From SAR324 cluster bacterium (GTDB lineage: Bacteria > SAR324 > NAC60-12), in contig JADGAT010000014.1 of the NCBI GenBank assembly GCA_015231885.1, forward strand, positions 1,349-65,348: 64,000 nt of DNA. Reading direction: 5' to 3'. The notes beneath the pieces are model-generated. The model ran no database searches. It saw only the letters and a program-made list of their open reading frames with translations, and was not told the origin of the DNA. The translations under genes were made by a program, and so were the position numbers. This document shows positions 1,322 through 52,713 of the stretch, in pieces; position 1 is the stretch's first letter; each line of letters opens with the position of its first letter.

Positions 1322-2833
1322 TTAGTTTTTTTGTCTTAAATACTCATTCAACATGACCGTATGCGTGTTTTCCAGAGGAAGTAAACGACTAATAATCTCC
1401 GTTAAGAGTTTTGGATTGGCATATGCTTCCTGAATAGCCTGTACGCGCAATTGAAACTGCTGAACGGTCTCGATGAGTGTCGAATTTTCCAAATATTCTT
1501 GTTGCTGTATGGCATGCTGGCTCTCATCCAGTACGGCCATACTCATACGCAACAGATTTTCACTTTCAATTGTAAAAAACACTTTAGAAAAGGGCCGAAT
1601 GTATTCGATGGCTTTGTAAGGTTTTTGCGTAGGAAGGCTGTGATTCTTTCTGTAATAATCCTGAAATAATCTCGCAAAACCGTTTTGAAATTGCTGCAGT
1701 TTGGGAAGGTGCTTAGTGATGCCAAATAATTCACGGTGCTTGAATAACAAATCCAAAGCATTGATAAATTTTTCAAAACATTGCACCAGACGCCTGTTCG
1801 TAATCAATCCTTTACCAGATGCAGGGGTTTGCATGATACGAATGTACTCTCCCACGCTCTCTTCTATGTAATCACTAATATCATACAAACTCTGTTCCAC
1901 TCTCAATAGATTCTCAAAATGTTTTTCATCAAAAACCTCATACAGTCCTAATTCCATGTAGTGGATAGCCCTGTCTTTGCTGATATATTCACTAATTTTT
2001 TCTAAAAAAAGAAAAAATTCTTCCAACTCATCCAAGTCATGTATCAGCTGATAGTGAAACTTTTTAACCAATACTTTGCTCAGGTAGCCGCCATTGTACC
2101 ATTCAGCAAGCGCCTTGAATCTTTTAAGAATTGGCACTCCTTCATTCATTCCCCGTTCCAGTTCCATCTGAATGACATCATCCATATAATGCCCTCCCAG
2201 CAGTTGTATGATTTCTTGTGCCAAACGGTATTTTGGAACAACAATTTGAGTGATGATGTGGTTATTCTGTACTTGGTTATTTAAAATAAAATCCTGATCC
2301 TTTTTACAAAGCTCCAGATCATACTTGATTTGAATCTCAGCTTGTATTTGGTTTAAAACGGCCTGGAGTTCTTCTTCAGTGGCTCTTCGTTGCAATTTAT
2401 AAATTCCCTGATCAAACAGGCCGCTTTGTAAATATTTGCGGAAGTCTGCAGGCTCAAAAGATTGTTCCTTTGCCTGATTTACCAGTTCGATCAATTTTTG
2501 GTAAAGTTGAGTATGATTGAGGAGTTTGCGATGATACTTGTCAAATAAATCATCATCAAAATGACCTGATTGTTTCAGGTGAGTCAAGTCGCTCATACGT
2601 GTCAACCCCTTCATGCTGGATTGGAGGGATTGACGGAGTAACTGGGTGATTGTTCTTTTAGACAGAGGTGTGTTGATGATGCTCAAAATCTTTGCGCCAA
2701 TTTCATACTTGCGCTCTATTTTTTTTTGAAGGGCCTCTAATTCACTGGAGGGAGTGGTGTGCAGCGCTTCTTGATCAGGAATACTTAGTGGAAAATGATA
2801 TGTGTTTTCTATGTAATCTGTGAAATTTTTCAT
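1322..2833 (-). CDS. Hypothetical 503-aa soluble, probably all-alpha-helical protein
   Basis: Long ORF, co-oriented and closely spaced (58 and 38 nt gaps) with its neighbours; no motif recognised. Confidence 0.75.
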   Translation of the reverse strand: MKNFTDYIENTYHFPLSIPDQEALHTTPSSELEALQKKIERKYEIGAKILSIINTPLSKRTITQLLRQSLQSSMKGLTRMSDLTHLKQSGHFDDDLFDKYHRKLLNHTQLYQKLIELVNQAKEQSFEPADFRKYLQSGLFDQGIYKLQRRATEEELQAVLNQIQAEIQIKYDLELCKKDQDFILNNQVQNNHIITQIVVPKYRLAQEIIQLLGGHYMDDVIQMELERGMNEGVPILKRFKALAEWYNGGYLSKVLVKKFHYQLIHDLDELEEFFLFLEKISEYISKDRAIHYMELGLYEVFDEKHFENLLRVEQSLYDISDYIEESVGEYIRIMQTPASGKGLITNRRLVQCFEKFINALDLLFKHRELFGITKHLPKLQQFQNGFARLFQDYYRKNHSLPTQKPYKAIEYIRPFSKVFFTIESENLLRMSMAVLDESQHAIQQQEYLENSTLIETVQQFQLRVQAIQEAYANPKLLTEIISRLLPLENTHTVMLNEYLRQKN

Positions 2834-2891
2834 AATATTTCACATCAAAATTATAAAACATTCCAAGTAAGCATTCATCCTGGTCCGGCAT

Positions 2892-5651
2892 TTATGGATT
2901 TGCCATTTTTTCTTCATTTGCATAGTTTTTGTCTCCATGGGCACTAAAAACGGCATCCTTGAATTGCCAGGATAAGGTCTTTTCCCGGCTCTGTTCGTCC
3001 AAAGCCAGGGAATGCCCAGATGCCATGCTATTGTACCAAAAATCCGTTTTGAGCTGCTTATTGCCCATATTCACAGCATTGTTGCTTAAAAACCGGTCTA
3101 TGCTTTTATACAAGTGAGGGTGCTGCAATAAGGGGTGGTGGTGATCATAAAAATCCTGAGCATGTAACATCAACTCAGGATGATCAAACTCATCAACATA
3201 CCACCTTTGCAAATTATCACGATACAGAATGGACAGTCTGCCGAACTTAAATAAATGTAAAAAAAAATAAATTTCTGTCACTTCTCTTGTGAGTTTAACT
3301 CCATCCATGTAGTGAGAGTACCGATATGGAAAAAAACTAACAATGCGGTCAGCAAGGCGAACCAGTACCTCTGCATCAATAATACTCCAGATGTTATCTA
3401 CTATATTTCCCAGGTCACTGGCGCCCAAGTCGATTTGAAACTTTGTTTTGCTTTCTGACAAAGAACCAGTACGAACCAATCCATAGTAACCATTCAAAAT
3501 GCAATAAGCCAGCCCTTTTAAAAAGCTCATTTCATAAATCAAAACAGTATCTTGAGAAACTGAAGAGGTTGCTGTATCAGTGGGTATACCCACAGTTTTT
3601 TCCTCAGTCAAGCCGCTGAAAACCCAGTTTCCCCGCCGCCTACTTTTCTCATATCGTATCACAATACGAGCTCTGGGGACTTTCAAGTGAGATAAAAAAT
3701 TTCTTGGAATTTCATTGGGATCATAATCAAAATTTTGTTGGTAAAAATGATACCAGATTTCAAATTCAGACTGATTGCTAGTGTCAGGAATATTGCTCTG
3801 TGCCATAATGCGGTGAATGCGATCCAGACAATTAGAAAAGAGATTTTTTAAATCATGTTCAAAATGGTTGATTGCCTGGACTTCTCCTATGAAAATCTGC
3901 TTGACTGTCAAATACTGCGAACTATTGGGGGGAAACGCCATATCTAGAAAAGATTTCAAAAAGCGTTCACGGTAGCTGCGGCAGTTCACCAGAGCAAATC
4001 CATCAGCAAGATTCACGTGTAAAGCAAAGCATAAATCAATATTACGGGAAATGCTTCGACGTTCTGATGAATCCAGTTGGATGGAAGGATCACTGTAATA
4101 AATTTTTAGAACTTTATATTTCAACCACCAGGGATCCATCAATAACAAAGGAATTTTTTCCTCCAGGGTAAGTATTTGCTGGACAGAAAGTCCATATCGG
4201 TGCTTACTGTCATTTTCCTGTTCTTTTGCAATTTCTTTATAATTCTTAGGAATCAGATGGTGGAGGGCCTCTGGTGATTTGACAATTTCTATCAACGTCA
4301 GCAAGTACTTTGAATGATAGAGAACCTCTATGCGGAATAAGTTCAGTAAGGCTTTGGGCAGGTTACCAGAAGCGGCTTTAAATGATTCCCAATAGGCAGC
4401 ACCAATATGGCTCAGCATGTAGGACATTTTTAATGAAGGGGTGGGGCCCATGTCAACCAAATAGTCATCTATGCGAAAATACAAAGGCAAGCAGTGAAAC
4501 CTAAGAAAATTAACGGTTCTTTTATAGAAAGCGGTAGAATTATTGAATACACTGGAAAAAATAAAGTGGGTGGGAATTGTTGGAGCAAACTGAATCCCAG
4601 GCATTAAAACTTCATAATTTAAGATCAATTCATAGGCAGACCCCGACGCCTCTTTTGATTCCAGCGTCGTGCCATGCTGCCCATTTTGAAATGATTCACA
4701 ATCACATGAAAACAGATAGACTTCGGCATGAGGAAATTTAGTCTGTACATAGTCCTGAATTGCTAAAATGCGTTGTTTGAGTAAACTTTCTTTTCGCTCT
4801 ATTTCTTCTGCATGAGCCGTTTTATAGGATTTTGTGATCAACTCCATCATCTCTAAAATGACGCTCATTTTGAATTGCGCACCATGAGTAGAGGCCAAGG
4901 CTCCGGATATGTCTTTATGTTTGAACAGTATTTGATACAGGTAAGGATAGGCTTTGCCAATATGAAGGGTTGCTTGTTGACGCAATTCTTTATAAATCTC
5001 AGAAGTCTTAGAAATTTCGCCTGGATCTAGCTTTTTTCGAAGGCAGAGACGAAGAAACCATGAATGGATTTCCTCTGATAACGCATCTCTCAAATGATCA
5101 CTGTCCCATTCATCAAGATTGAACTTAAATGGCTGCAGTGTGTATAAAATCTGAAGATCTAGATCCGATTTACCGGGCTTATGGCCAATGGTGCCAATTG
5201 AGCCCAATGAAGAAATACTGACGATGGGGCAAAAGTCCGAGATCATTTCTTTGGTAGGTTTTAATCCAAACTCGGCTGTCACATATTGATAGAAATCTTG
5301 ACGAAAGGCTTGTGGCAACTTATCAATTCCGGCAACTCCATGCAGAGTATCAGGCGCATATAAATTTGCGGTTGCCCGGTATTCGGTTTCTCGAATGATC
5401 CCGCTGACTCGTTCTACTTTGGTTGCCCGGTATTCTAGCTTTTCAAACTGAGGATCGTTGACATGTAAAAAATAGATAACTTCATACAAAGCTTTTTTCA
5501 TGTCTTCAGTAAAGACAGAAAAAGCTATCTTCATACGGGATTCATTGAAATGATTGAAAAACTTTTTTCCCTCTGTTAAGGCGTTTTCCAACTCTTTTGC
5601 ATTTTTTTCAGGTAAAGCAATCCCTGATTTAAATAATTTATTCAACCCCAT
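2892..5651 (-). CDS. Class I adenylate cyclase-like nucleotidyltransferase (Pol-beta fold), divergent
   Basis: SSLGSIGTIGH..KSDLDLQ (GS...DxD motif), GSAYELILNYE, YWESFKAASGNLPKALL and DPWWLKY resemble CyaA class I blocks. ATG at 5651 is the likely start; the ORF is open to a TTG at 5726. Confidence 0.7.
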   Translation of the reverse strand: MGLNKLFKSGIALPEKNAKELENALTEGKKFFNHFNESRMKIAFSVFTEDMKKALYEVIYFLHVNDPQFEKLEYRATKVERVSGIIRETEYRATANLYAPDTLHGVAGIDKLPQAFRQDFYQYVTAEFGLKPTKEMISDFCPIVSISSLGSIGTIGHKPGKSDLDLQILYTLQPFKFNLDEWDSDHLRDALSEEIHSWFLRLCLRKKLDPGEISKTSEIYKELRQQATLHIGKAYPYLYQILFKHKDISGALASTHGAQFKMSVILEMMELITKSYKTAHAEEIERKESLLKQRILAIQDYVQTKFPHAEVYLFSCDCESFQNGQHGTTLESKEASGSAYELILNYEVLMPGIQFAPTIPTHFIFSSVFNNSTAFYKRTVNFLRFHCLPLYFRIDDYLVDMGPTPSLKMSYMLSHIGAAYWESFKAASGNLPKALLNLFRIEVLYHSKYLLTLIEIVKSPEALHHLIPKNYKEIAKEQENDSKHRYGLSVQQILTLEEKIPLLLMDPWWLKYKVLKIYYSDPSIQLDSSERRSISRNIDLCFALHVNLADGFALVNCRSYRERFLKSFLDMAFPPNSSQYLTVKQIFIGEVQAINHFEHDLKNLFSNCLDRIHRIMAQSNIPDTSNQSEFEIWYHFYQQNFDYDPNEIPRNFLSHLKVPRARIVIRYEKSRRRGNWVFSGLTEEKTVGIPTDTATSSVSQDTVLIYEMSFLKGLAYCILNGYYGLVRTGSLSESKTKFQIDLGASDLGNIVDNIWSIIDAEVLVRLADRIVSFFPYRYSHYMDGVKLTREVTEIYFFLHLFKFGRLSILYRDNLQRWYVDEFDHPELMLHAQDFYDHHHPLLQHPHLYKSIDRFLSNNAVNMGNKQLKTDFWYNSMASGHSLALDEQSREKTLSWQFKDAVFSAHGDKNYANEEKMANP

Positions 5652-40121: not shown

Positions 40122-40961
40122 TCAACGACGTGTATTCTGAAAACTGACATTTTCAAATACTGTGCGGCTCTCCATGGTCTCCATCATAAAAGAAGAGTCA
40201 AAATTACTGCTGGTAAAATCAGCATCTATCAAATTAGCACCTTTTAAATTAGCACCATTGATTTTGGCAGATTCTGCAAACGTATTCATGAAGTGAGCCT
40301 GTGCCAGATTGGATTTGGTGAGATGAGCGTCTCGTAAAACAGTGGCAAAAAAATTAATTTCCTCCATCTGACATCCTCGCAAAAATGCCCCAGATAAATC
40401 ACAGAAACTCATATTGGCTCCTTTGAAATTGGAGCGGTCCATTTTTATCCCGGTCATGACCGATCCTGAAAAATCGGCTTTGGCAGCTATCAAATTACCC
40501 GAATCACAGGCAGTGAAGTCACATAAGGTCAATACGGATTCATCCAGACGTGCATTGAACATGGAAGTATTGGAGAAATCGGCCAGGGGCGCATTGACTT
40601 TAATTAAAAGAGCGCCATCCAGATTAGCCCCCCTGAAGGTGGCTTGCTGCATTTCAGCTTCTCTAAAATTGGCTTCCACCAAATTGGCATTTCGAAAACT
40701 GGCTCTCTCCATCTGGCATGAAACCAACGACGCTTCCTGAAAGCTGGCATCCAGCAATTCACAATCATTAAAACTGCATCGCTCCAGCATGCTTCCACTC
40801 AAGTTAACACCATTTAAATTACAATCAGCAAGATTGGAAAAACGCATATCCACTCCTACCATTACCAGATCTTCAAGGTTCAGTCCTGTCAGATCCAAGT
40901 TTCTCATCGGATCTCTTCTTTGAATCCTGCGTTCAACTTCTGATCGAGTAATACGTGCCAT
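40122..40961 (-). CDS. Pentapeptide repeat protein
   Basis: Continuous (A/S/C)-(D/N)-(L/F)-x-x pentads over ~250 aa. Confidence 0.92.
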   Translation of the reverse strand: MARITRSEVERRIQRRDPMRNLDLTGLNLEDLVMVGVDMRFSNLADCNLNGVNLSGSMLERCSFNDCELLDASFQEASLVSCQMERASFRNANLVEANFREAEMQQATFRGANLDGALLIKVNAPLADFSNTSMFNARLDESVLTLCDFTACDSGNLIAAKADFSGSVMTGIKMDRSNFKGANMSFCDLSGAFLRGCQMEEINFFATVLRDAHLTKSNLAQAHFMNTFAESAKINGANLKGANLIDADFTSSNFDSSFMMETMESRTVFENVSFQNTRR

Positions 40962-40978: not shown

Positions 40979-42607
40979 TTAAAAAAAACGGCGATAGAAC
41001 CGGATGGCTTCATCATAGTCCTGCATCTGTATCCTGCCTTTCATTGAAGTAAATACAGCACGGGCTACCGGCATATCGACATGGTGATGCATTCTTCGAA
41101 TTTTCACAGTAGCTCCCGGATAAATATTACCAGGGATAAAAACAATTCCTCCATCTTTGGCATGCTCCGTTTTGATGATGTCCACGGTGCGCCGCCACTC
41201 ATTTATATCTTTGATAGCATCATCTCGCAATTTCTGTACGGTCTCTACCATCTCACCAAATGCCTTTTCATGCTCTGAAGGAAGGATTCCACGCTTTTCA
41301 CGGGCTGATTGCAGCACCAATAGATTCTTTTTAGTTTTTTGAAAATTATAAAAATTCTGTCGAAGCTCTGATTCCAGGTTTTTAAAGTGCAGTCGGGTAT
41401 CTGGATCCAGCCCCACTTCTACAACGGTTTCATCGCCAATTTTATTTGAACCAACATTGGAAATGTTGACAAAGTTTCCTCCATGGCAAACCCCTCCATG
41501 AAAAAAGCCTTCTGGGTCCGTGACATGGATAATTTTTCCGGCAGATACATTCGAATTGATAATGTATTCTTTGACTACTACATTTCTACCCGCCTCAATC
41601 TGAGAATCGGAAACAAAAGAAGCACGTACGGATTGCTTGGCTTTGATTGTTGCTCCTAAAATCCCCTGCCCTACTTTCACCTCACCATCTGTCATCAAAA
41701 TAGCTTTACCGACGGAGCCAGTCACCTCAATACGATTAGTGGCATTGACAGTATATCCATCTTCCACATTGCCATCCACATAAACAATTCCATCGAAATT
41801 AAGATTACCGACAGAGGAATCAATATTATTGAGGCGCAGAATATTTTCAATAGAAATTTTATGATTAAACAGAACAACAAATCCTGCTTTAGCAGCAACA
41901 ATCTGAGTACGATCGGCATTAAAGGCCGTATGCCTGCCAGGAAAAATTAAACATTTGCGTCCAGGTCTGGCGGGAAGAGGAACCCCTTTGACATTATAAC
42001 CATTTTTACCCTTTGTGGGGGGAATGATATTGACCAGTACATCTCCGGCCTTTACATTTGTCAAAAAATTCATATCCCGGTGATTCACTTGGAGGGGTTC
42101 CTCCTGATTTGATTGTTTCTCTGATCCATAAACCAACTGAAGATAACCCTCTTTCCCATCAACGGGTTTTCTGCCACGTGCCACTAAAACGGGTTCATTT
42201 TCAATGTGCTCATCAATCATTTTCTGTAGTACATCACGCATGATTCCTTGTATCACACCGGCTTTGCTTAATTCTGCTTCCAGTCGGTCTACAGTGAGTG
42301 CGTCTTCTGGAGCATTGTATGGGGGATGAATAGAAAGGTGGGCTCCACCTGCGGTAGGGGGTATTTCGATAGTAAACTGATAGTCGGTGATTTCTTCATC
42401 ACACAGCAATTCAAAAGTATCCGAGGCGTGTTCATAAATCTCAAGTAATCGCTCAGGAAGGTAGTCAGCATCGATATCATGCAGTTCTTCCTGGATCTCG
42501 TCAAGATCTGCTTTGATTTCATCCAGAGCTGGTGCAATCCTCAGATATACTTTTCCCCCTTCAACTTTTATTTCATACAAACTCTCTAATTCTTCTTGTG
42601 CAATCAC
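40979..42607 (-). CDS. fapA: FapA / DUF342 family protein
   Basis: ARGRKPVDGKEG, PPTKGKNG.NVKG, SVGNLNFDG.V.V.GNVEDG, VEVGLDP, G.IYPG.TVKI. Confidence 0.8.
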   Translation of the reverse strand: MIAQEELESLYEIKVEGGKVYLRIAPALDEIKADLDEIQEELHDIDADYLPERLLEIYEHASDTFELLCDEEITDYQFTIEIPPTAGGAHLSIHPPYNAPEDALTVDRLEAELSKAGVIQGIMRDVLQKMIDEHIENEPVLVARGRKPVDGKEGYLQLVYGSEKQSNQEEPLQVNHRDMNFLTNVKAGDVLVNIIPPTKGKNGYNVKGVPLPARPGRKCLIFPGRHTAFNADRTQIVAAKAGFVVLFNHKISIENILRLNNIDSSVGNLNFDGIVYVDGNVEDGYTVNATNRIEVTGSVGKAILMTDGEVKVGQGILGATIKAKQSVRASFVSDSQIEAGRNVVVKEYIINSNVSAGKIIHVTDPEGFFHGGVCHGGNFVNISNVGSNKIGDETVVEVGLDPDTRLHFKNLESELRQNFYNFQKTKKNLLVLQSAREKRGILPSEHEKAFGEMVETVQKLRDDAIKDINEWRRTVDIIKTEHAKDGGIVFIPGNIYPGATVKIRRMHHHVDMPVARAVFTSMKGRIQMQDYDEAIRFYRRFF

Positions 42608-47629: not shown

Positions 47630-48445
47630 ATGAATCTCGCTACCGTCTTAGGATACGCTCTAGCCTATTTTCTATTGTTGATCGCTATTGTGGTGGATTT
47701 TAGTAATTTTGCCCTGCAATTTCATGCTTTGGCCTGGTTTGTTGACATCCCCTCTTTGATGATCGTACTGGGCGGCACAATTGCTTCGACAATGGCCAGT
47801 TATCCAATGGAAATGTTCACTACTTGTGGCAAATCGATCAAGTCCACATTTGGAGCAAACAATGTTCCCCTTGTAGAAACACTGACGTTGATTGTTGATG
47901 TTTCAAAAATTGCCCGGAAAAATATTCTGGCCATTGAAGATGCGTTACCCAGTATCGAAAATTTATATTTGCGGGGAGGGCTACGATTAGTGGTTGACCG
48001 GGTGGACCGCAATCTGATTGTGGAAATGATGTCTCATGAAATGAAGTATACGGATGCCGGTAAAGACGGAGAAATAGCGGTCATTAAAACCATGGCATCT
48101 CTATGCCCTGCCTGGGGAATGTTAGGAACACTCGTTGGGCTGGTGATTCTGCTGCAAAACCTGGATGACCCTTCTGCGATTGGTCCTGCGATGGCTGTGG
48201 CATTGATTACGACACTGTATGGATCCTTGTTTGCCAATACGATTTTTGCTCCTACGGCAAACAAAATGACGGTGACCAAAGACGATGAAAAACTTCTGAT
48301 GGAAATGATTCGCGATGGAGTACTTTATATTGAGCAAGGGGAACGCCCTGATTTTATTGAACAAGATCTTGTCAATTATTTGCCATCGGATCAAAAAGCG
48401 ATGTATGAGCAACTCAAATTTGACAATGAAAAGAAGGAAGATTAA
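47630..48445 (+). CDS. motA: Stator A subunit (MotA/PomA family)
   Basis: SLMIVLGGT, GLRLVVD, CPAWGMLGTLVGLV, AMAVALITTLYG, P.ANKM. Confidence 0.92.
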   Translation: MNLATVLGYALAYFLLLIAIVVDFSNFALQFHALAWFVDIPSLMIVLGGTIASTMASYPMEMFTTCGKSIKSTFGANNVPLVETLTLIVDVSKIARKNILAIEDALPSIENLYLRGGLRLVVDRVDRNLIVEMMSHEMKYTDAGKDGEIAVIKTMASLCPAWGMLGTLVGLVILLQNLDDPSAIGPAMAVALITTLYGSLFANTIFAPTANKMTVTKDDEKLLMEMIRDGVLYIEQGERPDFIEQDLVNYLPSDQKAMYEQLKFDNEKKED

Positions 48446-48448
48446 ATC

Positions 48449-49108
48449 ATGGGACAGATGATCGATGAAGAGGATTGCGAAGTATGTGTAGAATTTGACC
48501 AGGAATGGATTTTTACCTACGGAGACTTGGTTACTCTGCTGCTGTGCTTCTTCATTTTGCTTTTTTCCATGTGTAAAATGGATGTAGAAAAAATTAAAGA
48601 AGTTTCTCAGAGTTTTAAATCCATGCCTCCCGGCAGTCCTTTTGTGTTTAGTGGAAAACAATCTGTCATGGAATCAGTTGCCCAGGAAGTAGAAGACATG
48701 GAAATGCCTGACGATGTAAATGTCAATGTTTCTGATGAAGGAGTAGAGATCACCTTCAAAGAAACCATTCTGTTTGATGTCGGTGCTACTGAATTAAACC
48801 AGCAGGCAAAAGAAACTCTGGCAAGAGTGATTCCTATTATTAGCGGTCTTCCTAATATTATTCTCATTGAAGGGCATACTGATAGTGAAACAGACAACAA
48901 TCCGAATTTTCCCAGTAATTGGGAATTTTCTGCGGCACGTGCTGGTGCGGTCGCCTCTTTTTTGGAATCTGAAGGTATTCCAGGAGCACGCCTTCAAGTG
49001 TCGGGGTATGCTAATCTTCGTCCTCGTTTTTTTAATGACACTTCCTACAAGAGAAGCTTGAACCGGCGTGTGGATATCATACTGCTGCCCGAAAACCTGA
49101 CCAGGTAA
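48449..49108 (+). CDS. motB: Stator B subunit (MotB/PomB family), copy 1
   Basis: WIFTYGDLVTLLLCFFILLFSM TM with the conserved Asp; OmpA-like IEGHTD, NWEFSAARA, NRRVDI. Confidence 0.92.
   Translation: MGQMIDEEDCEVCVEFDQEWIFTYGDLVTLLLCFFILLFSMCKMDVEKIKEVSQSFKSMPPGSPFVFSGKQSVMESVAQEVEDMEMPDDVNVNVSDEGVEITFKETILFDVGATELNQQAKETLARVIPIISGLPNIILIEGHTDSETDNNPNFPSNWEFSAARAGAVASFLESEGIPGARLQVSGYANLRPRFFNDTSYKRSLNRRVDIILLPENLTR
48464..48592 (+). repeat. 129-bp exact repeat, copy 1 (identical to 49136-49264)
   Basis: Base-by-base identity from GATGAAGAGGATTGC to GATGTAGAAAAA. Confidence 0.95.
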
Positions 49109-49120
49109 AAAAGGACTCCC

Positions 49121-49771
49121 ATGGGTCAAATGATTGATGAAGAGGATTGCGAAGTATGTGTAGAATTTGACCAGGAATGGATTTTTACCTACGGAGACTT
49201 GGTTACTCTGCTGCTGTGCTTCTTCATTTTGCTTTTTTCCATGTGTAAAATGGATGTAGAAAAATTCAAGGATGTTGCTCAAAGCTTCAAACCGACTCCG
49301 GCAGGCAGCCCATTTTTACTGGAAGGTAATGATGCCATTGTTGAACGAATTTCAACAGTGGTGGAAAACAGTGAGATTTCTGAGGAGACCACAATGCGGG
49401 TAGAAGATCATGGCGTTGTGGTGTCTTTCAATGCAAGGGCACTTTTTGAATCAGGTTCTTCCGTCTTAACTGAAAAAGCAAAAACGGAACTGTCTAAATT
49501 TTCTAAACTGCTTTATTTCCTGCCTAACAAGCTCTTAGTGGAAGGTCATACAGATGATGCTCCACTGCCTCAAGGAATGTCTCATTGGCAGCTGTCTAGT
49601 GCGCGCAGCAGTGTTGTTGCACGTCATTTAATTACAGGGGGTGTGGATGAAAAGAAGATCACTATCAAAGGATATGGAAAATATCGTCCACAATTTCAAA
49701 ACAATATACCCGAGCAACGCGTTTTGAATAATCGGGTAGAAGTGATTGTGGTGCCAGAAGGAGAACAATAG
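49121..49771 (+). CDS. motB: Stator B subunit (MotB/PomB family), copy 2
   Basis: Same first 48 aa as copy 1; diverged OmpA-like domain VEGHTD, WQLSSARS, NNRVEV. Confidence 0.92.
   Translation: MGQMIDEEDCEVCVEFDQEWIFTYGDLVTLLLCFFILLFSMCKMDVEKFKDVAQSFKPTPAGSPFLLEGNDAIVERISTVVENSEISEETTMRVEDHGVVVSFNARALFESGSSVLTEKAKTELSKFSKLLYFLPNKLLVEGHTDDAPLPQGMSHWQLSSARSSVVARHLITGGVDEKKITIKGYGKYRPQFQNNIPEQRVLNNRVEVIVVPEGEQ
49136..49264 (+). repeat. 129-bp exact repeat, copy 2
   Basis: Identical to 48464-48592; period 672 bp. Confidence 0.95.
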
Positions 49772-49780
49772 GATAAAGCT

Positions 49781-50707
49781 CTATTTTTCAGCAGATCCCT
49801 CCCATTTGGGACAGATCTTTTTAAAATTGCAGTACATACAAAATCGGTCATTCTCCGTCATAGTAAACCGTTCTTCATTTGCTTGATTATTTCCAATATC
49901 TTCCAGTAAAAATTGCATATCCTGAATGGATTCAAAGATGGTCTTTTGAATTTTTTCTAAATTGACACCTGTTAGTTGATGATGTGTGGTATCCATGTGC
50001 ATCAGATTGACTTCCATGAGTTTTATTGTTTTTGGATCGACTTCCCATTGCTGCCATGCAAACCATCCATAACATGCCATTTGTAAATCATGATTATACT
50101 CCACGGATGATCCAGTTTTCCAATCATAAACCAGTACCTGGCCTACCATTCGTATCGCCAAATCAATGGATACATATACTTTGACCTCATTGAGAAGAAA
50201 ATAAGATAACTCTTCCAGGCAGAGCCACTGTTCTTTGGGGATCGTTTTGATTTCTTCCAGTAGTGGGGAGTGATAAAAATTTCGTATACATTTTTCTATA
50301 TGCTCGGCCGTCTCTTTCCATACTTCACCAGGTAATTCCAATTGATATTCATGCTCAAACAGTCCACAGCTCTTTGGTGACTCTAAATAAAGCTGGTCTC
50401 TTGAGCTTTTAAAATCGTCCCTCATGCTGCGAAGTGTTTGTTCAATGACCTCTTCCTCTGTTTTTATAGGTTTTTCATCTCGGACCGCTTCTAGAATTCT
50501 ACGGATGGCTGTGCGTACTTTTTCTCCAGACCAGAGGTGCCGGTTGACCAGTTTTTTCAGGACATAAGTCGTACGGGTGCGTTCATCACAGTTGCGCTGC
50601 CATCCTCCCCATGAACCATAATAATGGTAATAATATTGTTTCTGGCACTTTCTAAATATCTCTTCACGAGACTTTGACCAGGAAAATTCATTTTTGAAAC
50701 CTATCAT
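49781..50707 (-). CDS. PD-(D/E)XK nuclease, AddB/Cas4-like, with 4-Cys Fe-S staple
   Basis: SWSKS...KCQKQYY, IDL...VYDWKTG, QMACY, C-terminal CMYCNFKKIC. Confidence 0.82.
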   Translation of the reverse strand: MIGFKNEFSWSKSREEIFRKCQKQYYYHYYGSWGGWQRNCDERTRTTYVLKKLVNRHLWSGEKVRTAIRRILEAVRDEKPIKTEEEVIEQTLRSMRDDFKSSRDQLYLESPKSCGLFEHEYQLELPGEVWKETAEHIEKCIRNFYHSPLLEEIKTIPKEQWLCLEELSYFLLNEVKVYVSIDLAIRMVGQVLVYDWKTGSSVEYNHDLQMACYGWFAWQQWEVDPKTIKLMEVNLMHMDTTHHQLTGVNLEKIQKTIFESIQDMQFLLEDIGNNQANEERFTMTENDRFCMYCNFKKICPKWEGSAEK

Positions 50708-50898: not shown

Positions 50899-52713
50899 AT
50901 GATTCCAAGAAAAATCTCCACTCAAGTGTCCATGCTGCAACTGTCCATCGCTAAAAAAATAATTTTGGTTGCCATGGCGGCGTTATTGCTCGCTATTTGG
51001 AGTATTCACTCTGATTATACTGCCCAACTAAAAAATCATAACAGAGATACTCTCCGATCACATGCTTCAACCATTGCCGCACACTTCCAAAAATATGTAT
51101 CCGACCAGCTAGAACAAAGAGAGGAGTTTCTTTCTATTAGAACAGGCCTTACGGAACAAGTTCGTTGGATGCGCCAGCATCTTCCCTATCAAAAAATGCT
51201 CAGTCATATTGGAATTGTCGCAACTACCGGCCGCATTTTATCCCATACAAACACGAATCTAGTAGATCAGCATCTGCCTGAATCAACTATCCGGGAACTT
51301 TCTTCTACCAGGAAGCAGACATTTTTCAAAGAAAACGGAAGCTATCATTTTTATACCCCACTCATACAAGATGATAAGTTGTATGGTTTTGTACTCATTG
51401 GCTTTTCAGAGTCTGCAATTGAGGAAAACATTGGAAAAAATTTTCAAAACTCTTTATTCACGCTCGCAAAAGCCATTACTATCTTCATTGTCATCATCGG
51501 TATTTTTCTATTCTTCTGTATTGATGCCCCTTTTAAACAAATTCTTAAAGACATTGAGAGCATCGTACAGTCAGAAAATTTATCATTAAGGGTTGAATTT
51601 CAGTCAAAAGATGAAGCAGGTCAGATAGCTCAAAAAATCAATCTGCTGTTAGGCCTTCTGGGGCAAAAAGAAAAAGATGGGGAAGTATTATCAAAAAAAC
51701 ATGAAGAGGAAATACTCCATTATAAAGAATGGTTGAATCCGCTTGAAGAAGCCACTCAAACACTTTGCTCGCTGTTACCTCAAGATTTAATTGCCGCTTC
51801 TGCTAAGACAGCACAGGACGAGAAATCAAATCTGCAGACGATTATAGAGGCTCAACCTCCTATCATTGAGGAAAGGGATTCATCCCGATATTCTGCTGCG
51901 CAACTCAATAAACAAAAACTTATTACTATTGCAACCGATATAATAGTCGTGCAAAAAATTCTGCCTCACTTGCTTAAACTAGCTGCAGAAGGCGAGGCGA
52001 TATTGCAGGAAGTGTATGAGGATACACCATATCCAGAGCAACTGCTTAATGAAAAAACGGCGGACTTTCAACTCCATAAAGTTCGTTTTTTAGAACCTCC
52101 ACAAGATGCACCCGCTCGAGTTGTGATCTTTGATGATTTTGAAATGACTCGGTTTGCCTACGCAAAGACATTAGAAAATGACAAGGATTTTGAAGTCGTG
52201 GGATCCTTCAGCAATGCAGACAACTTCGTAGGAATATGTAAGGAACTCTCGCCTCACTTGGTATTAATGGATATTGACATGCATGCTACCATGAATGGGA
52301 TTGATGCTACCCAGGCATTGACTACCTTGTTTCCACATGTCTGCGTTGTCATTCTTTCGATACACCGCAGTCCTTATTTCATTACCAGAGCTTTGGCCGC
52401 AGGAGCCCGTGCCTATCTTTCCAAAAAAACCAGTTTGGCCAAACTATCCACTATTCTGAAAATGAGTTTGGATAATTGTATTGTCATCAATGAAGCCAGC
52501 GCCATTTATTATCTCAACTACCAAAAATTCTCTGAAATTTTTACCAGCACAGAAATGAGAGTATTTATGGAGATGCTGGAAGGATACACTGCAAAAGAAA
52601 TTGCGGAGCACTTGGGGTCGTCCAGTAAAACTGTGGAAAATCATATCCATAATATCTTACGAAAATCACATACCTCCCGTGAAGACATTACTCGATATTT
52701 TACCTCTATTTGA
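50899..52713 (+). CDS. Membrane sensor (TM-periplasmic-TM-HAMP) fused to NarL-type REC and LuxR HTH
   Basis: Two TM segments; HAMP PFKQILKDIESI...DEAGQIAQKIN; REC VIFDDF...LMDIDM...VVILS...YLSK; HTH FTSTEMRVF..MLEGYTAKEIAEHLGSSSKTVENH. Confidence 0.8.
   Translation: MIPRKISTQVSMLQLSIAKKIILVAMAALLLAIWSIHSDYTAQLKNHNRDTLRSHASTIAAHFQKYVSDQLEQREEFLSIRTGLTEQVRWMRQHLPYQKMLSHIGIVATTGRILSHTNTNLVDQHLPESTIRELSSTRKQTFFKENGSYHFYTPLIQDDKLYGFVLIGFSESAIEENIGKNFQNSLFTLAKAITIFIVIIGIFLFFCIDAPFKQILKDIESIVQSENLSLRVEFQSKDEAGQIAQKINLLLGLLGQKEKDGEVLSKKHEEEILHYKEWLNPLEEATQTLCSLLPQDLIAASAKTAQDEKSNLQTIIEAQPPIIEERDSSRYSAAQLNKQKLITIATDIIVVQKILPHLLKLAAEGEAILQEVYEDTPYPEQLLNEKTADFQLHKVRFLEPPQDAPARVVIFDDFEMTRFAYAKTLENDKDFEVVGSFSNADNFVGICKELSPHLVLMDIDMHATMNGIDATQALTTLFPHVCVVILSIHRSPYFITRALAAGARAYLSKKTSLAKLSTILKMSLDNCIVINEASAIYYLNYQKFSEIFTSTEMRVFMEMLEGYTAKEIAEHLGSSSKTVENHIHNILRKSHTSREDITRYFTSI

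Follow-up and report, generated by a model that had tools for sequence, protein, structure and literature searches.

In a 64,000-nucleotide (nt) stretch of DNA from a SAR324 cluster bacterium (contig JADGAT010000014.1 of assembly GCA_015231885.1; referred to here as the window), the genes motA, motB1, and motB2 form a predicted flagellar stator operon that encodes one MotA and two MotB proteins, each with a MotB_plug and an OmpA domain. The two motB genes share an exact run of 129 nt at their 5' ends and differ strongly in the regions that follow. Our analysis of this run and of related loci indicates that motB1 and motB2 are very probably old tandem paralogs with a 5' module that evolves in concert, that motB1 recently converted motB2 in this strain, that selection maintains the module between such events, and that the outcome would be one channel with two anchors.

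The exact run, which is the longest shared by motB1 and motB2, covers codons 6 to 48 of each gene, and its two copies are 672 nt apart from start to start (Table 1). The 15 nt on its 5' side contain three mismatches, all of them silent (GGA/GGT, CAG/CAA, and ATC/ATT), so that residues 1 to 48 of MotB1 and MotB2 are identical. The first mismatch on the 3' side is at nt 145 of the genes. Past nt 144, the nucleotide identity is 65% in codons 49 to 64 and then about 35 to 55%, and the protein identity, 100% over residues 1 to 48, is 26 to 55% in the later blocks. The break falls within a predicted continuous helix (residues 24 to 54) that comprises the transmembrane (TM) segment and the plug. The repeat, the three silent differences, and the collapse of similarity in the plug helix had all been described in a first-pass annotation made from the sequence alone, and every coordinate and identity given there proved exact. 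In a repeat search, the pair extends to 196 nt (90% identity, same 672-nt spacing), and this is the sole direct repeat of at least 35 nt in the window. By our own arithmetic, the chance of 129 straight matches is about 3e-13 at 80% identity and about 1e-5 at 92% identity; an exact run of this length is far beyond chance.

The three genes of the operon are on the same strand, with intergenic gaps of 3 nt and 12 nt. The identities proposed for them earlier, one MotA and two MotB proteins, agree with their Pfam matches, which are MotA_ExbB for MotA (Table 1) and, for both MotB proteins, MotB_plug (PF13677; E about 1e-16 in both) and OmpA (PF00691; E=2e-16 for MotB1 and 2e-18 for MotB2). All top PDB hits of MotA are flagellar stator A subunits, either MotA or PomA (E about 1e-43 to 1e-19), with 6ysf (Clostridium MotA), 8ucs, and 8bri/8brd (Vibrio PomA) as the best structures at about 1e-43, and MotB1 matches MotB, PomB, and MotS chains, including their C-terminal domains. 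For MotA, the nearest NCBIfam profiles are MotP and PomA; MotB1 and MotB2 come closest to MotD, MotS, and a MotB subfamily. As every score is under the curated cutoff (for example, 189 versus 394 bits), we assign no subfamily or coupling ion. The layout of MotB1 consists of a cytoplasmic tail with a CxxC motif, a TM segment with the channel residue Asp26, a plug, a linker, and an OmpA-like peptidoglycan-binding domain. MotB2 has the same architecture, and the periplasmic parts of the two proteins are about 36% identical. Asp26 is part of a WIFTYGD motif and is invariant in the MotB alignment. AlphaFold2 monomer models, which are of moderate confidence (predicted local distance difference test scores of 62 to 65) and were used for helix boundaries only, place a helix at residues 24 to 54 of both proteins, then a linker and, starting near residue 90, an OmpA-like fold (residues 90 to 212 in MotB1). 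As only 3 nt separate the motA stop codon (48443 to 48445) from the motB1 ATG, the two genes may be translationally coupled. In the spacer between motB1 and motB2, a promoter and terminator scan detected no promoter-like or convincing terminator-like site. No further MotA or MotB homolog was found within the 64-kb window, and the earlier statement that a single motA serves both motB genes is thus true of the operon and of the window.

Related loci were collected in three ways. A scan of one genome per species provided 16 SAR324 loci with the tandem pair and two divergent loci with a single motB, exact-protein look-ups provided the closest relatives (MotB1 72 to 87% identical), and a metagenome scan provided about 30 further loci. 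Homologs of the stator proteins carry SAR324 cluster names, and MotB1 and MotB2 each have SAR324 orthologs at 60 to 87% identity (up to 87% for MotB1, in SAR324 metagenome-assembled genomes [MAGs]). The order motA-motB1-motB2 is found in about 55 SAR324 loci, corresponding to every main-clade locus that extends far enough, and no single-motB or chimeric motB form is present among them. The perfect tract is confined to the window strain. In the relatives, motB1 and motB2 are 71 to 92% identical over the first 144 nt, and their longest exact runs are 11 to 59 nt, with runs of 29 to 59 nt in L080, L003, and L004 (L-numbers designate the related loci and W the window). In the nearest relative, L080, the tracts of the two genes differ by 14 synonymous and 5 nonsynonymous changes. 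Most relatives have tracts that differ at 20 to 25% of their nucleotides, with TM residues that are still identical.

The two parts of the motB genes have distinct phylogenies. With alignment columns 66 to 220, which lie outside the tract, the motB1 sequences are monophyletic in 100% of the bootstraps, indicating that the paralogs are older than the radiation of the SAR324 main clade. In the tree of the tract, motB1 monophyly is recovered in 0% of the bootstraps, and the two window genes (W_B1 and W_B2) are sisters in 99 to 100% of them; the paralogs also group by genome or clade in L085, L080, L004, L002/L003, and clades D and E. Tandem order and identical 5' ends are features that resemble those of a young duplicate, and the tract could in principle be the remnant of a recent duplication that was followed by very fast divergence of the periplasmic parts. 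This is refuted by the reciprocal monophyly of the periplasmic parts of MotB1 and MotB2 across the main clade (100% bootstrap), and is also at odds with the separate sets of orthologs of the two proteins and with the distance between motB1 and motB2 outside the tract, where the nonsynonymous distance (dN) is 0.66 and the synonymous distance (dS) is saturated. We give hardly any credence to a recent duplication.

Nucleotide identity follows the same division. In a sliding-window comparison over codons 9 to 40, motB1 and motB2 are 85 to 87% identical within a genome (a mean that takes in the window itself), 79 to 80% identical within the same clade, and 73 to 75% identical between clades. This gradient is limited to codons 1 to 40; downstream of them, the identity is about 50% and is equal for the three comparisons. 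A comparison of this kind had been suggested in the first-pass annotation, and within-genome identity does exceed between-genome identity, in the tract only. In the window itself, the tracts of the paralogs are 98 to 99% identical to one another versus 75 to 85% identical to that of any ortholog. With the window excluded, the codons that specify the same residue in motB1 and motB2 are identical in 61% of cases within genomes versus 45% between clades in the tract, and in 45% of cases within genomes versus 37% between clades in the rest of the gene. An effect of codon usage is present, but the excess in the tract is over twice as large.

An alternative source of such identity would be a constraint at the nucleotide level, for instance one imposed by RNA structure, by regulatory sites, or by signals for translation, that fixes the synonymous sites of the tract. 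The tract does encode the most conserved part of the protein, with many invariant columns in residues 1 to 48, and equal synonymous conservation between orthologs had been named beforehand as the sign of another constraint. As dS calculated by the Nei-Gojobori method (NG86) is saturated for most ortholog pairs, we measured synonymous divergence as the proportion of same-residue codons that differ. Orthologs differ at 30 to 50% of the same-residue codons in the tract, which matches the rest of the gene; between the window and L080, the values for the tract versus elsewhere are 0.38 versus 0.44 for motB1 and 0.37 versus 0.38 for motB2. The tract thus diverges between orthologs as the gene does elsewhere, which refutes a nucleotide constraint. 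The 14 synonymous differences in L080 also argue against it, and no Rfam family was found in the 64-kb window. We consider this explanation extremely unlikely.

The proportion of synonymous-codon differences between paralogs in the tract varies among genomes. It is 0.07 in the window, 0.18 to 0.26 in L085, L003, L002, L004, and L014, and about 0.5, which corresponds to saturation, in L082, L084, L086, and L006 to L008. This spread suggests repeated conversion events of different ages. The event in the window strain is recent, and we estimate that it occurred at a dS below about 0.1 (0 changes at about 30 synonymous sites). The first-pass annotation had spoken of ongoing gene conversion; conversion is supported by the within-genome excess that is restricted to the tract, but "ongoing" is not, as the perfect tract occurs in the window strain only. 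At the sites that distinguish motB1 from motB2 (GAA/CCG at codon 11, GTA/GAA at codon 14, and C/T at nt 102), the B1 state is present in both window genes. Most relatives have P11 and E14 in MotB2, and the window MotB2 has the B1-type residues E11 and V14. This indicates that motB1 was the donor and motB2 the acceptor. A short event in the reverse direction is seen in L080, where nt 10 to 38 are identical and of the B2 type. At each of positions 18, 27, 32, and 36, the genomes fall into two or three states, and MotB1 and MotB2 of one genome agree in 22 of 22 cases; the covarying residues 27, 32, and 36 are located in the channel-lining TM helix. A Sawyer-type permutation over the whole gene gave p values of 0.0001 (window) and below 0.01 (L080, L002, L003, L004, and L009), although this test is anticonservative, the tract being conserved in any case.

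Several points weigh against the interpretation that we favor, or limit its reach. A permutation confined to the tract, which has little power, falls below 0.05 solely for L003, L009, and L082; in the window, 80 of the 81 sites are concordant, so that no clustering signal is possible. Shared codon usage may contribute to the clade-level signal, the rest of the gene having a 7-point within-genome excess of its own, and the genomes compared are phylogenetically nonindependent. Because the nearest relative is already distant (dS to the window of about 0.9 to 1.6), "recent" means only a dS below roughly 0.1. In terms of function, we infer that MotB1 and MotB2 both pair with this MotA and that their anchors have differing roles, and further stator sets may be present elsewhere in the genome. 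The repeat is, in addition, read from assembled contigs; searches of public sequencing runs with stretches of 2.3 kb and 1.3 kb and with a 10-kb rpoBC stretch listed no run.

This last point raises the possibility of an assembly artifact, in which an assembler collapsed or cross-joined the 5' ends of two copies that truly differ. The source is a MAG, and short-read contigs of relatives break in this region: L081 (a Logan contig from SRR20820736) ends at the motB1 stop codon and L164 at codon 50 of motB1. Such ends, at the edges of the shared tract, are what one would expect of a repeat that interrupts de Bruijn assembly in other samples. Against an artifact, the same structure has been deposited twice. 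Look-ups of the exact MotB1 and MotB2 proteins retrieved one other record only, GCA_002753255.1 (PDZZ01000069.1), which is from the same strain and has the same tandem structure, and the two contigs, of 68.8 kb and 17.7 kb, were separate depositions and differ at a single position in 6660 nt. Were the true tracts only about 80% identical, as in the relatives, no k-mers longer than about 30 nt would be common to both, leaving a de Bruijn assembler without a sequence to merge. Each copy lies between unique flanks, neither reading frame is broken, and the tract has clean boundaries; the relatives display intermediate states, with exact runs of 29 to 59 nt, and the window is otherwise free of direct repeats of this kind. 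An artifact is therefore very unlikely.

Outside the tract, motB1 and motB2 are both under strong purifying selection, with a dN/dS ratio of 0.05 to 0.10 for both paralogs and of 0.07 to 0.10 between motB2 orthologs. Selection acting in parallel on both TM segments, fixing the same substitutions separately and with no transfer of DNA, is also conceivable as the cause of the similarity. It would account for the identical TM residues of most genomes, in which 20 to 25% of the nucleotides differ, and is in line with the covariation of residues 27, 32, and 36 in the channel-lining helix and with loci of the Omnitrophota type, whose paralogs have an identical 27-residue TM segment at 75 to 85% nucleotide identity. 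Parallel selection fails, however, to explain the identity at all 38 degenerate codons of the 129-nt run, the within-genome excess of identical synonymous codons, the exact runs of 29 to 59 nt in L080, L003, and L004, or the tree of the tract. There is only a small chance that it acted alone, and we regard it as probably a contributing force rather than an alternative. The retention of TM residues by most relatives in spite of the nucleotide divergence indicates that selection is the main homogenizing agent at the protein level. Conversion is episodic, and maintenance is mostly due to selection for a single TM segment that is compatible with MotA.

Gene conversion combined with selection would then operate as follows. 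The linker and OmpA-like halves of motB1 and motB2 diverged before the radiation of the SAR324 main clade, and the first 40 to 48 codons evolve in concert; these encode the cytoplasmic tail, the TM helix in which Asp26 binds the ion, and the beginning of the plug. In the window strain, a recent nonreciprocal recombination very probably pasted 129 nt of motB1 over the matching part of motB2, and similar events, older or shorter, would have taken place in other lineages. Between events, purifying and coadaptive selection would hold both TM segments fit for the single MotA pentamer encoded upstream. Conversion would be an occasional shortcut, one that also moves coadapted changes between the copies. 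Both B subunits would insert into one shared MotA channel and use a common ion path, and they would differ in the end of the plug, the linker, and the peptidoglycan-binding domain, so that a cell could build stator units with two anchoring or activation modules, possibly including mixed dimers. The MotB protein would thereby be naturally split into a uniform channel module (residues 1 to about 45) and a freely diverging anchor module, a division that would be useful for the design of stator chimeras and that bears on the role of the periplasmic domain in recruitment, activation, and load response.

Stators of the B1B1, B1B2, and B2B2 types, which the first-pass annotation had suggested, are plausible. 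A more specific proposal is that homogenization is driven by a shared TM face, either in a mixed B1-B2 dimer within one MotA pentamer or in two classes of stator that attach to separate periplasmic structures. This would be consistent with the retention of both motB genes, under strong purifying selection, in all main-clade loci that extend far enough, a pattern that fits nonredundant roles, but we put it forward tentatively and consider it doubtful at present.

Direct repeats such as this one, perfect over 129 nt and spaced 672 nt apart, can undergo RecA-dependent or slippage deletion. The first-pass annotation had suggested a recombinational switch, in which the repeats delete 672 bp to generate a single chimeric motB; a programmed switch would do so in a fraction of the cells. 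This is not supported. As residues 1 to 48 are identical, the deletion product would encode exactly MotB2, and the outcome would be a one-way loss of motB1. No single chimeric motB occurs among the approximately 55 main-clade loci, and the relatives have no long repeat, so that a switch cannot be a conserved function. A gapped junction pattern that accepts both intact and deleted forms, running from the end of motA through the B1-specific 5' end and 114 free nt to a degenerate B1/B2 continuation, had no matches in metagenome contigs, but these contigs lack the intact form of this strain, too. We consider a programmed switch highly improbable.

In a divergent, high-G+C lineage related to SAR324 (L015, positions 3465 to 4103; L016, positions 415 to 1053; and L114 to L116), only one motB follows motA, and the next gene is convergent. 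The MotB of this lineage is intermediate between MotB1 and MotB2 over the whole length and very different in residues 1 to 20; on these grounds, we rejected the possibility that this gene is a deletion chimera. The sequence comparison suggests that it probably represents the state before the duplication. Among the related loci with the tandem pair, some harbor disrupted motB genes. In the metagenome contig L101, a 1-nt deletion in a run of six T residues in the TM region of motB2 (at about 2480 to 2490) truncates the protein after 46 residues. The run is T5 in L101 and T6 in the nearly identical L118, and a T6 run is present in both window copies; the frameshift could be a sequencing error or a natural one. 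L117 has truncations in both motB genes.

The CxxC motif (C10 and C13) is present in the tails of both MotB proteins, at codons 10 to 13 (48476 to 48487 and 49148 to 49159). C10 and C13 are invariant in a 16-sequence SAR324 alignment, as are two further cysteines of the TM helix, Cys33 and Cys42. The lineage with a single motB has H-x-C in place of the tail CxxC. A B dimer would gather four tail cysteines, and a metal or redox site could be conceived on this basis.

Table 1. Coordinates of the stator operon, the repeated tract, and neighboring genes in the window
Feature	Position	Strand	Description
Pentapeptide-repeat protein gene	40122-40961	-	Adjoins the FapA-family gene
FapA-family (flagellar assembly protein A) gene	40979-42607	-	About 5 kb upstream of the stator operon
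motA	47630-48445	+	Stator A subunit, 271 amino acids (aa), first gene of the operon; Pfam MotA_ExbB PF01618, E=1e-22
Shine-Dalgarno-like AAGGAAG for motB1	48434-48440	+	Within the 3' end of motA; read from the sequence
motB1	48449-49108	+	219 aa; Pfam MotB_plug 18-58, OmpA 108-206
Tract copy 1	48464-48592	+	Codons 6-48 of motB1; exact run; inferred donor
motB1 plug and early linker	48593-48643	+	Similarity to motB2 49265-49315 fades from about 65% nucleotide identity to background
Shine-Dalgarno-like AAGGA for motB2	49111-49115	+	In the 12-nt spacer past the motB1 stop codon (49106-49108); read from the sequence
motB2	49121-49771	+	216 aa; Pfam MotB_plug 18-57, OmpA 108-203
Tract copy 2	49136-49264	+	Codons 6-48 of motB2; exact run; probable conversion acceptor
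PD-(D/E)XK nuclease-family gene	49781-50707	-	Ends 9 nt past the motB2 stop codon, on the opposite strand
Gene for sCache + receiver + LuxR-type helix-turn-helix protein	50899-52713	+	604 aa; next after the PD-(D/E)XK gene

The genes that surround the operon in the window are ordinary chromosomal genes, including those for RpoB, RpoC, RNase III, TatD, NAD synthase, ParB, Dxr, CdsA, UppS, and RseP. Apart from the operon, the FapA-family gene is the sole motility-related gene detected by the Pfam scan, which covered part of the window. The PD-(D/E)XK and sCache/LuxR neighbors are conserved in L080, the closest relative; in relatives farther away, they are not. Two antisense open reading frames (ORFs) of 179 and 162 aa, at 48122 to 48661 and 48794 to 49282 on the minus strand, overlap the tract copies and share a translated stretch. 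Both are by-products of the repeat in a mechanical ORF list, with no sign of being genes.

Concerted evolution of part of a gene pair has well-known counterparts. As in tufA/tufB and the rRNA operons, the motB pair is a mosaic in which one segment groups by genome and the rest by paralog, with sharp ends and conversion events of mixed ages. Unlike in those cases, the converted segment would be a functional module inside the MotA pentamer, and the homology is limited to about 145 to 200 nt. Partial conversion between tandem paralogs is a common process, and our results do not reveal a new mechanism. Our literature search found no paper on gene conversion between motB paralogs, and a recent MotAB survey contains no mention of SAR324, Aquifex, or tandem B genes.

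The combination of one A-type subunit with two different B-type subunits is also seen in the AglRQS gliding motor of Myxococcus xanthus, which has one MotA/TolQ-like protein, AglR, and two MotB/TolR-like proteins, AglQ and AglS. The likeness raises the possibility of a mixed B dimer. AglQ and AglS are TolR-like and are not known to have a peptidoglycan-binding OmpA-like domain; both SAR324 B proteins, in contrast, carry MotB_plug and OmpA and match flagellar MotB, PomB, and MotS. In the dual stator systems of Pseudomonas (MotAB/MotCD), Shewanella (PomAB/MotAB), and Bacillus (MotAB/MotPS), the A and B subunits are both duplicated, often with a different ion or load response. As in these systems, two kinds of stator unit could serve flagellar rotation in SAR324. 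Unlike in these systems, the channel-forming parts would be shared, and only the plug, linker, and anchor can differ. According to a recent preprint on Pseudomonas (bioRxiv 10.1101/2025.11.06.686970), the periplasmic part of the B subunit is under study as the determinant of the dependence on MotY, a periplasmic ring protein.

Among the non-SAR324 loci, 4 of 60 (L056, L064, L049, and L074) have the order motA-motB-motB. In L056 (positions 1819 to 4277; an Omnitrophota MAG) and L064 (positions 2 to 2041), the paralogs share an identical 27-residue TM segment at 75 to 85% nucleotide identity and then diverge; in L049 and L074, both Planctomycetota MAGs, the TM segments have diverged. Flagellar genes are present in all SAR324 genomes according to surveys of this group (PMC9031357; see also PMC4782131).

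The closest known system is the motA/motB1/motB2 operon of Aquifex aeolicus, in which the N-terminus and TM segment of the two MotB proteins are 97% identical (one residue differs) and the periplasmic regions 23% identical (Takekawa et al. 2015, Sci Rep 5:12711; PMC4525482). In Escherichia coli, chimeras with either N-terminus work together with MotA and are driven by Na+ (PMC4525482). The layout with a shared TM segment has thus already been published for A. aeolicus and is not new. Like A. aeolicus, SAR324 has one motA followed by two motB genes with nearly identical N-termini and TM segments (100% over residues 1 to 48) and diverged periplasmic regions (about 36%). SAR324 belongs to another phylum, and gene conversion is not discussed in the Aquifex study (PMC4525482). 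As the divergent SAR324-related lineage has a single, intermediate motB, the SAR324 duplication was probably independent of that in Aquifex. The design of one MotA and two MotB proteins with a shared TM segment is therefore not an oddity of Aquifex, as it is fixed across a globally abundant marine phylum and is also found in Omnitrophota. If mixed dimers or two stator classes do occur, SAR324, and by analogy Aquifex and Omnitrophota, would possess natural stators with one channel and two anchors.

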